Source of the DNA: a virus
Strand: one strand, 5' to 3'
Virus record (IMG/VR): IMGVR_UViG_3300026522_000019
Length of the DNA stretch: 5,145 nt
Shown: piece after piece, positions 1-5,145 of the stretch
Position numbering within the stretch: the stretch's first letter is position 1
Layout of the letters: each line of letters begins with the position of its first letter
Notes under the pieces: model-generated
Told to the model about the DNA's origin: nothing
What the model saw: the letters and a program-made list of their open reading frames with translations, nothing else
Database searches by the model: none
Position numbers and translations under genes: made by a program

Positions 1-127
1 ATACTTTTCGGCGTCTGTCAAATGTAAATATTCATCATAATACGCTGGCGGTCGGGTAATCATACCATCAGGCAAAACAACTTTATCATAATTATAGACA
101 TCATTAAAATACTTAACAATCCAATCA
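1..127. repeat. Terminal redundancy, copy 1 (identical to 5019-5145); circularisation overlap rather than a biological repeat
   Basis: Exact 127-nt direct identity read by eye. 127 is a commonly used assembler k-mer length. A coding frame runs through the join. Confidence 0.9.
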
Positions 128-774
128 TGAGCAATGCCAGGCTTACGAGACATGGTAATAAATTCAGGAGTCCGGCCCTGATAATGCGCCGGGGCGTCCT
201 TACCATACACTTTTTTAGTTACATACCGGGCCACATAAGCGCAGCTCTTAAAAGTAACATTACCAATGGTATGGAAACCATAAGGCCAAAGACTAAATAA
301 AAAGTCAGAGATATAAAGCGGGCCGTAAGGCGTCTGTCTAAGTAACTGACGGTCATCACTAAAATCGTAATTAAATATAATAAGATGATAATGAGGCCGT
401 AAATTTTTGTCACCATATTCACCACAAGCAAAGAAACGAATCTTGATATTCTGATAAGAGAGAGCCTTACGTAACCGTTTTAGGAAAAGCTGAACATCAC
501 GTACAGACACAGAACGAGAAGCTGGAAGATGCGCATCATCGAAAGTCAAAGTTAAAAAACAGTTACAGTCATGTAAAGAAGCTTCATGAACACATCTGAC
601 TGCCCATTGCCTAGAATGTGCCAAACGGCATCCAATACATTTTCCACAAGGTATAGTGCAGGGCTCCGCACCGCGAGCCGGAGGGCTCGCAGGGGAACCA
701 AACACAATACGATATCCAGATTTTGAACTGGCATCAGGAACGCGCCAGCAATCGATAGGATGATAACAAGCCAT
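1..774 (-). CDS. VP4: Replication initiator protein VP4 (HUH rolling-circle endonuclease), N-terminal 258 codons. The ORF leaves the window edge and continues at 5018->4902, for 296 aa in total.
   Basis: Hand translation from ATG 774-772 has no stops: MACYHPIDCWRVPDASSKSGYRIVFG...CGKCIGCRL...CFLTLTF (motif I)...RPHYHLIIFN (HUH motif II)...CAYVARYVTKK (catalytic Tyr motif III). It is in frame with the track ORF 4902..5093 (774-75=699, divisible by 3). The ATG lies 2 nt after the TAG of the upstream small ORF, suggesting translational coupling. Confidence 0.93.
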   Translation of the reverse strand, partial: MACYHPIDCWRVPDASSKSGYRIVFGSPASPPARGAEPCTIPCGKCIGCRLAHSRQWAVRCVHEASLHDCNCFLTLTFDDAHLPASRSVSVRDVQLFLKRLRKALSYQNIKIRFFACGEYGDKNLRPHYHLIIFNYDFSDDRQLLRQTPYGPLYISDFLFSLWPYGFHTIGNVTFKSCAYVARYVTKKVYGKDAPAHYQGRTPEFITMSRKPGIAHDWIVKYFNDVYNYDKVVLPDGMITRPPAYYDEYLHLTDAEKY

Positions 775-1801: not shown

Positions 1802-3439
1802 TTAGAAGTGGTCAACAAGACCAGGGACACCGTAAACCGGCATAGGACGGGCACACTTCATCTGGATATAGCTATCAATAATGAACTGAGGTTCATCCTG
1901 GACTGCGAGTATTCGAGACACTGGCGGATTATCTTCAATAAACTGAGCTGAAAGCGTCGGAAGACTATCAAATTTCTGGGAAAGATGCCAAACATCAAGA
2001 CTCTGAGGGTCAGTAGACCTAAGTTTACCAGTAATCATAGAAGGAAAATAACGATATTCTGCATATCTTTCCTGATAACCAAATACATCATCATCAACAG
2101 GTTTACCCTGGGCAAAAATTTCCTTATTAAGAATCGCCTGTTCACCAAGATGCGCAAGTACGGGCCAATAGAAATCAAAGCGTGTGCGACGGCTAAACAT
2201 GCGCGGAATACCCTGCTGGTAAGTGAGGTCAGCACGAACATTAAGGAGACCAATAACAATACCATGTTCAACGAAAGATTTAGTAAAACCATGCTTAGCA
2301 GAAGTACTAGAAGCAAGACCATATGCAGCAAGGTTACCCTGCGGAGTATCTGCGTCTCTAGCAGTCGCAGAGTTCTGGACTACCGGATTGATAATAACAG
2401 GGCTTTCAGAGCCGCCAAGATATTCAGGACGCTGTAGGCGACTATCCGGAGAAACAACGCCAAAGTGAGAGCGGAGAATCTCAGTATAACGAGTACCGCC
2501 ACGGGCATCACGTTCGTAAAGTTTCTGAAGCTGGAAGGCCTGGCGGAGAGAATTGATAGTGGCAGCTGTTACAGAAGATAAATCAGCATACATAGGGCCA
2601 GTAGTAGCACCAGAACCCACGTTGGGGGGAAAGGGAGTATTCAAAAAAATACGGTCATCATAATTAGCAGGTTTAAAAAGAGCAAGATTTGTGTTAGTAA
2701 CCGTAGATTTAACCGTAGGCTGGAAATGCGTAGCATTAAAAGTACCACCATCAACAGTAACCGGAGCATTTCCGGAAAGGGGAAGCTCTACGCCCGGGCC
2801 TTTCTGAGGCCACGGAAGCGCGCTAGTAAAATAATCATGACGCTTTCCACGTCTCAGGAGCTTATGAAAGCCAGTATAACCAGCATCACCAAGGCCAACA
2901 TCATCCAAACCGGAAGCAGATGCAATCTCAGCGAAAGAAGAAAGATTAATAGGATTCTGAAGATTTTCATCCCTAAACCATTCATTCCAGATAAGCGCAT
3001 ACGCTCTAGCGGCTAATTCATTAGCTTTAATACCTTTGACGCCAGTCGGTAAACCAAAATAATCTTCAAGAGAGCCAACCGGGAAACCTTTATCAGCCGG
3101 AGCGGTTGTCTGAGGTACAAGATAATCAGTCTGGGCACCGGGATAATCCTGCTGACCATTAAACTGTTCCCAGTGTTTCCAAAGCAAGCGATAAGGGACG
3201 AAGAAAAAAAACGTATCAATAAACAGATTATCCATCGTAGGGACGATAGGAGTAGAAAGACGAGCTAAAAAATTAAACTTAACCTTGTAGGAGTCACCGG
3301 GAAGCACTTCATCCACAAGAAACGGCACAAGATAACCGCTATCGAAAGTACTTTTCCAGCCGTGAGACCTATCAAAGACAGACCGGGAGATTTGAGCTCG
3401 AGGAATCTGCGAAAATAAATGCTTCATGACTGACTTCAT
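1802..3439 (-). CDS. VP1: Major capsid protein VP1 (phiX174 F-like), 545 aa
   Basis: Track ORF with SD AAAGGA 8 nt upstream. Hallmark microvirus capsid motifs are present: FSQIPRAQISRSVFDRSH, YLVPFLVDEVLPGD, FFFFVPYRLLW, ALPWPQKG, TINSLRQAFQLQKLYERDARGGTRYTEILRSHFGV, and RFDFYWP. Confidence 0.97.
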   Translation of the reverse strand: MKSVMKHLFSQIPRAQISRSVFDRSHGWKSTFDSGYLVPFLVDEVLPGDSYKVKFNFLARLSTPIVPTMDNLFIDTFFFFVPYRLLWKHWEQFNGQQDYPGAQTDYLVPQTTAPADKGFPVGSLEDYFGLPTGVKGIKANELAARAYALIWNEWFRDENLQNPINLSSFAEIASASGLDDVGLGDAGYTGFHKLLRRGKRHDYFTSALPWPQKGPGVELPLSGNAPVTVDGGTFNATHFQPTVKSTVTNTNLALFKPANYDDRIFLNTPFPPNVGSGATTGPMYADLSSVTAATINSLRQAFQLQKLYERDARGGTRYTEILRSHFGVVSPDSRLQRPEYLGGSESPVIINPVVQNSATARDADTPQGNLAAYGLASSTSAKHGFTKSFVEHGIVIGLLNVRADLTYQQGIPRMFSRRTRFDFYWPVLAHLGEQAILNKEIFAQGKPVDDDVFGYQERYAEYRYFPSMITGKLRSTDPQSLDVWHLSQKFDSLPTLSAQFIEDNPPVSRILAVQDEPQFIIDSYIQMKCARPMPVYGVPGLVDHF

Positions 3440-3543
3440 ATTATCAATCCTTTCTGAATGACCGCCCTAAGGCTTCGCCAACAGGCTGTATCATTCAAAA
3501 ATATTCAAAGAGTGAGAAAAAAGAGCCGCTTAACGGTGTCACT

Positions 3544-3577
3544 CCGGCCAATTACATCAAGTAGTGTAATTGGCCGG
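3544..3577 (-). other. Perfect 13-bp stem / 8-nt loop hairpin in the VP3-VP1 spacer; candidate replication-origin or RNA-processing/attenuation structure
   Basis: CCGGCCAATTACA (3544-3556) pairs with TGTAATTGGCCGG (3565-3577) with no mismatch. The loop on the sense (minus) strand is CTACTTGA. Confidence 0.75.
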
Positions 3578-3600
3578 GCGGCGCTTACCGTTAGCAAATA

Positions 3601-4044
3601 TCAATTTACTTCTTTACCGGAACCTTCAACAGGTCCGGAAGGTACTTCAGGAGCACCGTCAACAGGTTTGTCAATAATTCCAAGCCTAATTGCTTCAGCA
3701 TATTCATCACTTCCTTCCTTAAGAGACTGAACGAACTGGAAATAGGCGGCTGGATCATTTCCAAATCGTTCGCGAATTTTACTTGAAAGGTGACCAAATG
3801 CATTATTAGCCGCCACTATGACATTCTGAGCCTCCTGGTAAGAAGGCATTTCAGAAAAATCACCAAATTGAGGAACACGAGACACCGGTACAGTAGGGTC
3901 TACAAGTACACCGGTAGTCTCAAAACGCGAAATAATAGAGTTAATATCCGCATCATCTTTAAAAGACTGAAGCGTCTGGGAAGGCTGGTCAAACACAATA
4001 CCAGGCTTTTCGCCGGTAACAGAATAACGAGATTTAAATTTCAT
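3601..4044 (-). CDS. VP3: Internal scaffolding protein VP3 (147 aa)
   Basis: ATG 4044-4042 is preceded by GGAAAGGAAG. Translation starts MKFKSRYSVTGEKPGIVFDQPSQTLQSFKDDADINSIISRFETTG...FGDFSEMPSYQEAQNVI. Size, acidic character, position just upstream of VP1 and these motifs fit gokushovirus VP3. The 176-aa track ORF begins at a GTG (4131) with no SD, so I prefer the internal ATG. Confidence 0.82.
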   Translation of the reverse strand: MKFKSRYSVTGEKPGIVFDQPSQTLQSFKDDADINSIISRFETTGVLVDPTVPVSRVPQFGDFSEMPSYQEAQNVIVAANNAFGHLSSKIRERFGNDPAAYFQFVQSLKEGSDEYAEAIRLGIIDKPVDGAPEVPSGPVEGSGKEVN

Positions 4045-4246
4045 GATCTTCCTTTCCGCGCGGATCCGCGCTGCAAGTATCTGCAAATAAACTAGTAGGT
4101 TTAAAATTACTACTAGTAAAACAGGCACCACAATTTAAACAAACAGAGATATAGTCGTCAACGTGATACAAAACGCATTGACAATACTCACAACGATCGA
4201 TACCGTCAAATACAAAACGCTTAAAAGCAGGAGGAACTTTAAGCAT
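4034..4246 (-). CDS. Hypothetical 70-aa Cys-rich (zinc-ribbon-like) protein, accessory ORF between the non-coding hub and VP3
   Basis: ATG 4246-4244 is the first start after an in-frame TGA. The Cys pattern is C19-x2-C22-x-C24 ... C36-x2-C39-x2-C42, with 7 Cys and 2 His in 70 aa. 42 of 70 codons end in T, versus 26 of the first 60 VP1 codons and 6 of 29 in the competing frame. It overlaps the VP3 start by 11 nt, as real microvirus genes often do. Weakness: the only SD-like AAGGA is 14 nt upstream. Confidence 0.5.
   Translation of the reverse strand: MLKVPPAFKRFVFDGIDRCEYCQCVLYHVDDYISVCLNCGACFTSSNFKPTSLFADTCSADPRGKEDHEI
4058..4071. repeat. Perfect 14-bp GC-rich palindrome GCGCGGATCCGCGC just upstream of the VP3 ribosome-binding site
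   Basis: The sequence is self-complementary by direct reading. It can form a 5-bp GC stem with a GATC loop. It lies 3 nt from the VP3 SD, inside the 3' end of the Cys-rich ORF. Confidence 0.7.
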
Positions 4247-4279: not shown

Positions 4280-4394
4280 CCAGGAACTTTCCAGGAACTT
4301 TCCAGGAACTTTTCCAGGAACTTTCCAGGAACTTTTCCAGGAACTTTCCAGGAACTTTTCCAAGAACTTTTCCAGGAACTTTTCCAGGAACTTT
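4280..4394. repeat. Tandem array of 10 units of CCAGGAACTTT(T); the sense strand reads (A)AAAGTTCCTGG
   Basis: Unit lengths are 11,11,12,11,12,11,12,12,12,11, totalling 115 bp. There is a single substitution (G->A at 4363, unit 8). Each junction creates TTCCAGGAA, a TTCC-N-GGAA dyad. Nine units carry CCWGG. Confidence 0.95.
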
Positions 4395-4507: not shown

Positions 4508-4541
4508 GGAAAAAGAAAACACCGCCGTATGGCGGCGGTGT
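4508..4541 (-). terminator. Rho-independent terminator for minus-strand transcription, 57 nt downstream of the VP5-like ORF
   Basis: The sense strand reads ACACCGCCG-CCATA-CGGCGGTGT (9-bp stem, 7 G:C, 5-nt loop; 4541->4519) followed immediately by TTTTCTTTTTCCC. On the plus strand the hairpin has no T-tail, so it is directional and matches the gene orientation. Confidence 0.7.
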
Positions 4542-4597
4542 CGGGTGTCACCATACGAAAAGAGAAAACAGTATAACGGCAGCACCCAGGAGGAAAA

Positions 4598-4901: not shown

Positions 4902-5145
4902 TCATTCTATCGGTCTAATCAACTTTTTGGCAACCTCCTTCTGGTGTTGCTCTTTTTGGAGAAGGCGCGTGACCGATTCATTTTTTACCGTCGCCTTCCT
5001 CTGCGCCTTAAGTATATGATACTTTTCGGCGTCTGTCAAATGTAAATATTCATCATAATACGCTGGCGGTCGGGTAATCATACCATCAGGCAAAACAACT
5101 TTATCATAATTATAGACATCATTAAAATACTTAACAATCCAATCA
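4902..5145 (-). CDS. VP4: VP4 Rep C-terminal portion: the last 38 codons plus TGA are unique (4902-5018), and 5019-5145 duplicates window nt 1-127
   Basis: Same frame as the 1..774 segment once the 127-nt overlap is collapsed. The protein ends ...YHILKAQRKATVKNESVTRLLQKEQHQKEVAKKLIRPIE followed by TGA (4904-4902). The M of the track ORF at 5093 is an internal TTG Leu codon, not a start. Confidence 0.9.
   Translation of the reverse strand, partial: DWIVKYFNDVYNYDKVVLPDGMITRPPAYYDEYLHLTDAEKYHILKAQRKATVKNESVTRLLQKEQHQKEVAKKLIRPIE
5019..5145. repeat. Terminal redundancy, copy 2 (identical to 1-127)
   Basis: Same as copy 1. Confidence 0.9.

Follow-up and report, generated by a model that had tools for sequence, protein, structure and literature searches.

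A perfect hairpin in the intergenic region between the VP3 and VP1 genes of a gokushovirus genome is probably the viral-strand origin of this phage, that is, the double-strand origin from which rolling-circle replication would start. This reading, already put forward in the original prediction, is supported in related genomes by a covarying stem, a near-invariant loop and a TGACACC box that lies in the phiX174 register. Gokushoviruses are among the most abundant ssDNA phages in gut and environmental viromes. In the literature covered, no description of the element and no mapped gokushovirus origin was found, although the older papers on Chp2, SpV4, phiMH2K and Chp4 may hold an earlier description, and the element is annotated in none of the public records examined.

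The window (the whole stretch of DNA analysed, 5145 nt) corresponds to a circular gokushovirus genome of 5018 nt followed by a 127-nt terminal assembly overlap, positions 5019-5145 repeating 1-127, and all genes of this genome are on the minus strand. The nearest public records are microviruses with about 80% nucleotide identity that come from human vaginal, cat and pig samples. VP4, the proposed nicking enzyme, is encoded by a 296-aa ORF on the de-duplicated circle. The features are the following:

1802..3439, minus strand: VP1 major capsid gene (Pfam PF02305, E 2.5e-182), downstream neighbour of the module in the window's clade
1786 to 908, minus strand: VP2 pilot protein gene
1..774, minus strand: VP4 (Rep) gene, first 258 codons (Pfam PF23343, E 2e-23; PHROG 942, E 6e-112)
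4902..5018, minus strand: VP4 gene, last 38 codons and stop, joined to position 1 across the circle junction
4891 to 4598, minus strand: VP5 gene
4246 to 4034, minus strand: small Cys-rich ORF, 70 aa
3601..4044, minus strand: VP3 internal scaffolding gene (Pfam PF09675, E 1e-29), the module always lying after its 3' end
3587..3593, minus strand: outer stem 5' half, TAACGGT, pairing with 3531-3537; predicted by folding, clade-specific
3532..3579, minus strand: whole conserved module (5' arm, loop, 3' arm and TGACACC box), described by covariance model R1
3544..3577, minus strand: perfect 13-bp stem with 8-nt loop, the upper stem of the module (arms 3544-3556 and 3565-3577)
3557..3564, minus strand: loop, CTACTTGA on the gene-sense strand; predicted scissile bond G3558/A3557 by analogy with phiX174
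3535..3541, minus strand: TGACACC box, with its first base at +20 from the C of CTTG
3531..3537, minus strand: outer stem 3' half, ACCGTTA, overlapping the 3' end of the box
3517..3522, minus strand: T6 run, found only in the window and L014
3451..3501, minus strand: second spacer hairpin, an optional accessory; its TTAGGGCGGTCATTCA is an inverted, degenerate version of the box region

Some other parts of the genome also deserve mention. Most of its extra length is due to an array at 4280-4394 of about 10 tandem copies of an 11-12-nt unit (sense-strand AAGTTCCTGGAA, palindromic core TTCCTGGAA), bounded by direct repeats TTATTAGCCTAAG and located immediately upstream of the Cys-rich ORF; the unit is present in 0-1 copy in 20 relatives, and the array either arose by expansion in this lineage or is an artefact of assembly. 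At 1728-1757, in the first 20 codons of VP2 and just past the VP1 stop, 11 bp pair perfectly around an 8-nt loop; this hairpin ranks second in stability among the local folds and lacks conservation in 19 relatives. The site that most resembles a terminator lies on the minus strand at 4518-4542 (GACACCGCCGCCATACGGCGGTGTT then TTCTTTTTCC), just past VP5 and within a probably spurious 85-aa ORF, and among close relatives a counterpart with a different stem was found only in L011; neither of these two strong structures is conserved in close relatives. Among the relatives, L002 (KT264828) carries a 158-nt tandem duplication inside VP4, which is why its VP4 is annotated as split VP4-1/VP4-2.

The hairpin and its conservation among relatives

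The original prediction had described a perfect 13-bp hairpin in a 161-nt spacer between VP3 and VP1, followed 21 nt downstream by a T6 run, as the strongest local structure of the genome, and the description proved accurate throughout. The two arms of 13 nt are 100% complementary with 8 nt between them, the VP3 stop at 3601 and the VP1 start at 3439 leave a spacer of 161 nt, and the gene-sense (minus) strand reads CCGGCCAATTACA-CTACTTGA-TGTAATTGGCCGG, then AGTGACACCGTTAAGCGGCTC, then TTTTTT, a run that begins 21 nt after the stem. As a local structure it ranks first only narrowly, with -14.8 kcal/mol for a 44-nt window under DNA parameters compared to -14.0 (1762 to 1719) and -13.6 kcal/mol for the runner-up folds. 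Perfect hairpins of at least 13 bp with 3-12-nt loops have a chance expectation of 0.00076 at the composition of this genome, and the longest perfect hairpins in 60 shuffles measured 6-12 bp, none exceeding 12 bp. The fold of the whole spacer gave z = -4.4 as DNA and -5.2 as RNA, and a search of the window against Rfam returned two chance-level matches only, both outside the hairpin.

Relatives (7 GenBank and 80 IMG/VR genomes) were picked by VP1 similarity alone, at 55-93% identity. In a simple search, 59 of 88 genomes showed CTTGAT between the arms of a perfect stem (6 bp or more), and these stems varied widely (for example ccggccaattaca, ggcacagttac, cagccatataata and agaccagtta). A loop-anchored MAFFT alignment failed to yield a consensus structure, the loop being of variable length on its 5' side. 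The covariance model R1, with a hand-specified structure and 26 seed sequences of one loop-length class that did not include the window, matches the window with 57.2 bits (E 9e-13) and finds the module in 72 of the 88 gokushovirus genomes at E<1e-3, the other 16 having no match at this threshold. Compensatory changes were found at all 12 modelled stem pairs (65 distinct sequences), with 87.7% of cells paired compared to 24-38% in controls where the partner was slid by 1-3 columns and a covariation score of 0.556 versus 0.148 in shuffles, figures that come from an alignment fitted to the model structure, which favours structure, and from phylogenetically related sequences, so that the statistics overstate independence. 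The search for a covarying stem with an invariant loop in relatives, which the original prediction had proposed, was strongly positive (12 of 12 pairs, with a nearly invariant loop core).

An additional IMG/VR sample, independent and free of the model-fitting bias, was obtained with a strict pattern made of the loop, the proximal 3' arm and the box, the 5' arm being left out. This pattern matches at least 120 IMG/VR contigs; among the matches listed, a VP1 homologue is encoded by 117 of 117 new loci, and a perfect 5' arm of at least 6 bp is present in 115 of these 117, represented by 71 distinct arms.

The loop CTACTTGA together with the first base of the 3' arm gives CTACTTGAT, and its core CTTG(A/T) is nearly invariant across relatives. 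CTTGAT was itself the search key for the 55 instances chosen by regular expression; in the model-derived alignment it forms the core of most rows, with CTAGAT, CTTGTT and CTTGGT as variants. The 3' arm starts at +4 or later in all of 169 distinct instances, which places the G-A bond within the loop or at its 3' edge in every one of them. When the 55 loop-anchored instances are compared without gaps, T, G, A, C and A occupy +20 to +24 in 47-49 of them, usually as TGACACC, and the box played no part in their selection. It is proposed as a candidate Rep recognition element. The TGACA of the box was also considered as a sigma-70 -35 element and rejected, since by eye neither the window nor the E. 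coli phage has a suitably spaced -10.

In the clade of the window, an outer 7-bp stem encloses the hairpin and part of the box, and 2 of its 7 pairs show compensatory changes (AU/GC and AU/UA) among 11 close relatives. At the position of the T6 run other close relatives read CACTCTTCAC or similar, and the run is probably outside the conserved element. The second spacer hairpin is absent from L001, L011 and L012. Instead of the outer stem, many lineages have an inverted box copy located some tens of nucleotides downstream. Such copies are enriched overall and found in a minority of genomes: a complement of the box of at least 6 nt occurs downstream in 14 of 64 cases compared to 3.6% expected, and the exact inverted 7-mer in 3 of 64 compared to 0.1 expected. 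In the E. coli prophage relatives an exact inverted copy, GGTGTCAG, follows the box at a distance of about 40 nt. The outer stem and the inverted box copies are accessories of the module and not defining parts of it.

With regard to individual genomes, the E. coli dif-locus prophages L093 (4163-4260) and L094 (4104-4214) present the module, a small hairpin and then the inverted box, of which the conserved TTAGGGCGGTCATTCA of the window (3455-3470) resembles a degenerate counterpart. L007 (MG945426) carries two identical modules 741 nt apart (2761-3549), which bracket an 89%-identical partial copy of the VP1 start containing a 400-nt internal palindrome. It was considered as a natural double-origin genome and rejected, since the 89%-identical duplicate and the palindrome point to a probably chimeric assembly. 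L041 is a concatemer of two 85%-identical variants.

Position, orientation and occurrence

The module is located directly after VP3 in all 72 genomes, whichever of two gene orders they have: module-VP1-VP2-VP4-VP5-VP3, as in the window's clade and the E. coli phages, or module-VP4-VP5-VP1-VP2-VP3. Weak model matches (E 0.002-0.02) occupy the same relative position in Chp2, Chp1 and phiMH2K:

Chp2, 2903-2952: weak match, E 0.0016, loop CAGTCTACTTGATCTG
Chp1, 2747-2790: weak match, loop CCTCTTGGC
phiMH2K, 3297-3344: weak match, loop CTACTTGTTG

The module is unannotated in these three records, that of Chp1 listing four other hairpins, and SpV4 showed just AACTTGATAA with GGTGAT at +20 and no stem. 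The hosts of the carriers include Chlamydia, Bdellovibrio and E. coli, and gut and environmental phages also keep the motif; this wide host range fits recognition by a phage protein better than recognition by a host protein. In the gokushovirus prophages of the E. coli dif locus, the module scores 63.9 bits and is found between VP3 and VP1, away from the prophage ends.

In four of 189 genomes (L065, L110, L160 and L175) the module is on the strand opposite to all genes. It is at 4113-4161 on the minus strand in L065, and in L065 and L160, the two with gene order traced, it occupies the usual VP3-VP4 gap. The nearest VP1 relatives of each of the four are sense-oriented genomes, and the four are not mutual closest relatives. 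The strand that carries the inverted module is very T-rich in all of them (T minus A = +0.15 to +0.22); among 185 sense-oriented genomes, T exceeds A in 107 and 16 are strongly A-rich, so that the orientation of the module goes with the T-rich strand only in part. Such a flip would be tolerated by a DNA signal and would abolish one that works in mRNA, and the inverted cases therefore speak for a function at the level of DNA and against one in mRNA. It is conceivable, although doubtful, that the module is a self-contained, strand-defining origin cassette and that the phages with a flipped module nick and package the antisense strand as negative-sense ssDNA, after several independent switches. 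The whole module of L065 lies between the halves of an 8-bp inverted repeat (TTGCTCTT/AAGAGCAA), which could have mediated its flip.

Proposed mechanism and rival explanations

If the hairpin is the viral-strand origin, the 13-bp inverted repeat would extrude or breathe in the supercoiled replicative form, and VP4, as a two-tyrosine HUH endonuclease homologous to protein A, would recognise the TGACACC box together with the proximal 3' arm (GTAAYTG) and cut the gene-sense strand in the loop at CTACTTG/AT. In the window this would be a cut after the G of the loop, between G3558 and A3557. VP4 would become linked to the 5' A while host helicase and polymerase would extend the 3' OH in a rolling circle; after one round, the displaced strand would refold into the hairpin, and the second tyrosine would cut and reseal it into a circle for packaging. 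The element would then be a phiX174-type 30-nt origin whose positions +5 to +17 gained a complementary upstream arm, an arm by which the nick site would be displayed in a loop as in CRESS-DNA viruses and in plasmids of the pT181 and pMV158 types. The persistence of the module after VP3 through gene-order rearrangement counts in favor of an origin, and against it stands the fact that phiX174 does without a hairpin and has its origin within gene A.

A separate observation concerns L016, where a 114-nt tandem duplication (918-1150) starts 1 nt past the predicted nick, with junctions CCACTTG/ATGTAACTGG and CTGG/ATGTAACTGG. In this single contig the duplication could come from aberrant Rep termination or from slippage between two ACTTGA microhomologies. 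No second case of repeat boundaries at the nick site was found in 205 genomes, which is a weak negative because the strict pattern also missed L016.

The main alternative to a viral-strand origin is a complementary-strand origin, in which the hairpin of the packaged strand would be the place where host RNA polymerase, primase or a PriA-type primosome starts the conversion to double-stranded DNA, as at the phiX174 n' site and the G4 origin hairpins. In its favor, the hairpin is conserved, lies in the main non-coding region and is on the strand presumed to be packaged, the inverted modules suit any function linked to ssDNA, and conserved intergenic hairpins of other microvirus clades are read in this way in one study, whose authors could not certify the role (PMC9865509). 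This alternative appears unlikely because the invariant part of the element is a loop equal to the phiX174 Rep cut site plus a box in the phiX174 register, and because host priming signals are host-specific whereas the motif is kept across phages of Chlamydia, Bdellovibrio and E. coli and those of gut and environmental samples. It is likewise improbable that the module is a binding site used by the phage in some other way, for example in packaging or as the operator of a DNA-binding protein, and resembles the phiX174 origin by coincidence. A perfect palindrome with a nearby box, and sometimes with an inverted copy of this box, does resemble the site of a dimeric protein, and the phiX174 origin itself doubles as a packaging entry point; however, the stem sequence varies freely while its pairing is kept, which points to structure instead of a readout of duplex sequence, and the loop motif is specific to one strand and agrees with an HUH cut site that is already known.

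A role in RNA, whether in terminating or attenuating transcription between VP3 and the gene that follows or in stabilising mRNA 3' ends there, is very unlikely, even though the extended stem of the window read as RNA is followed after 3 nt by CUCUUUUUUCUC and, in the common gene order, the module closes the gene array. The original prediction had offered an attenuator or stabiliser that uses the T6 run, and this part of it fails: the run is missing in nearly all relatives, being present only in the window and one close relative, and lies 21 nt after the inner stem; a consensus terminator scan is silent at the hairpin but calls a site at 4542 to 4518; four genomes have the module on the non-coding strand; and neither the invariant loop nor the fixed-register box would be explained. 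The least probable candidate, with hardly any weight left to it, is a dif-like XerC/D recombination site for lysogeny. A phage dif motif located in a non-coding region allows some gokushoviruses to integrate at dif (PMC7062461), and the element is a palindrome with a central spacer, but its perfect 13+8+13 geometry differs from the 11+6+11 of dif (28 bp, imperfect arms), the E. coli dif-locus prophages carry the module internally between VP3 and VP1 and not at their ends, and phages deleted for dif still made circular phage genomes in infected cells (PMC7062461). A dif/Xer site is thus excluded by geometry and by prophage anatomy.

Read as the viral-strand origin, the stem, the CTTG/AT loop and the TGACACC box make up a short, recognisable and directly testable module, and the strong copy in the dif-integrated E. 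coli prophages makes it testable in a K-12 system. The module could also be used as a natural zero point for the coordinates of circular genomes, as a marker of the replicated and probably packaged strand, and as a minimal cis element for vectors or for the study of VP4.

Comparison with phiX174 and other rolling-circle origins

In the phiX174 record, the viral-strand origin is annotated at 4306, within CCCCCAACTTGATATTAATAACACTATAGACCACC, and the 30-nt origin is cut by protein A at G4305/A4306. An ungapped comparison of phiX174 CAACTTGATATTAATAACACTATAGACCAC with CTACTTGATGTAATTGGCCGGAGTGACACC of the window gives 17 of 30 identical positions; CTTGAT is common to both, as is GAC at +21 to +23 from the C of CTTG, and CTACTTGAT of the window agrees with the cut-site CAACTTGAT at 8 of 9 positions. 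The phiX174-origin-like motif that had been noticed on the gene-sense strand is borne out by this core, CTTGAT, being identical to the verified phiX174 origin. The accompanying caveat was a shared core of only 7 nt; the resemblance reaches beyond this core, as the TGACACC box lies at the distance of the phiX174 GAC, with the phiX174 GACCAC in the same register. The 3' part of the phiX174 origin is its binding 'key'.

The enzymes are also comparable. VP4 has the HUH and Tyr motifs that the original prediction ascribed to it, as PHYHLIIF and the two-tyrosine motif YVARYVTKK, and its alignment with protein A pairs CFLTLTF (FLTLT) with FDTLT and PHYHLIIF with LHFHAVHF, with WPYG as a further element, and in motif III (YVA[RK]YVxKK) YVARYVTKK with YVAKYVNKK; BLASTP between the two proteins gives E 0.002 over motifs I and II. 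Both elements are on the gene-sense strand, in phages of the same family with homologous Rep proteins. They differ in that the phiX174 origin has no inverted repeat, model R1 matching just its 7-mer, and is located within gene A, whereas the gokushovirus element is intergenic after VP3 and in the window has a perfect 13-bp stem; on account of this intergenic site and stem, it is called a variant and not a plain member of the phiX174-type origins. The middle of the origin is an AT-rich spacer in phiX174 and a 3' arm covarying with an upstream arm in gokushoviruses, and the gokushovirus element resembles a phiX174-type origin in which the central segment has turned into a 3' hairpin arm.

In CRESS-DNA viruses (geminivirus, circovirus and nanovirus), the HUH Rep cuts a conserved loop motif above a stem whose sequence varies while its pairing is kept, and the gokushovirus element is similar in its location in the main intergenic region and in the display of a cut-type motif in the loop of a stem with conserved pairing. 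The loop motif is nevertheless of the nonanucleotide NANTATTAC type in CRESS-DNA viruses and YTACTTGAT here (window loop CTACTTGA(T)), and CRESS Rep, with one catalytic Tyr and an SF3 helicase, belongs to a different family from VP4. Additionally, a single fixed-register box takes the place of the CRESS iterons; no direct repeats were found beside the stem of the window, the sole repeat array being about 700 nt away and absent from relatives.

Among rolling-circle plasmids, the pC194 origin contains TTCTTATCTTGATAATAAGG, with the same CTTGAT core (PMC7072734), the nick region of pC194/pUB110 reads CTTGATA, and in pT181 and pMV158 hairpin extrusion places the nick in a loop, apart from the bind site. 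Such a split between nick site and bind site, with hairpin display of the nick, is the general scheme for plasmid origins of this kind (PMC5714925). These plasmids use Rep_1, Rep_2 and Rep_trans proteins, not the Microviridae Rep, and have other bind sites, and the plasmid initiator is inactivated after one round whereas the phage protein re-initiates. Closer to the window, conserved and compensated intergenic hairpins near Rep were described by comparative analysis in reekeekee- and roodoodoo-microviruses and tentatively tied to negative-strand initiation, a role that the authors could not certify (PMC9865509). These hairpins belong to clades other than gokushoviruses, and in the passages covered of that study they are not linked to the phiX174 cut site. 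With the gokushovirus module next to the phiX174 origin, a single virus family would thus contain one type of HUH origin both with and without hairpin display.
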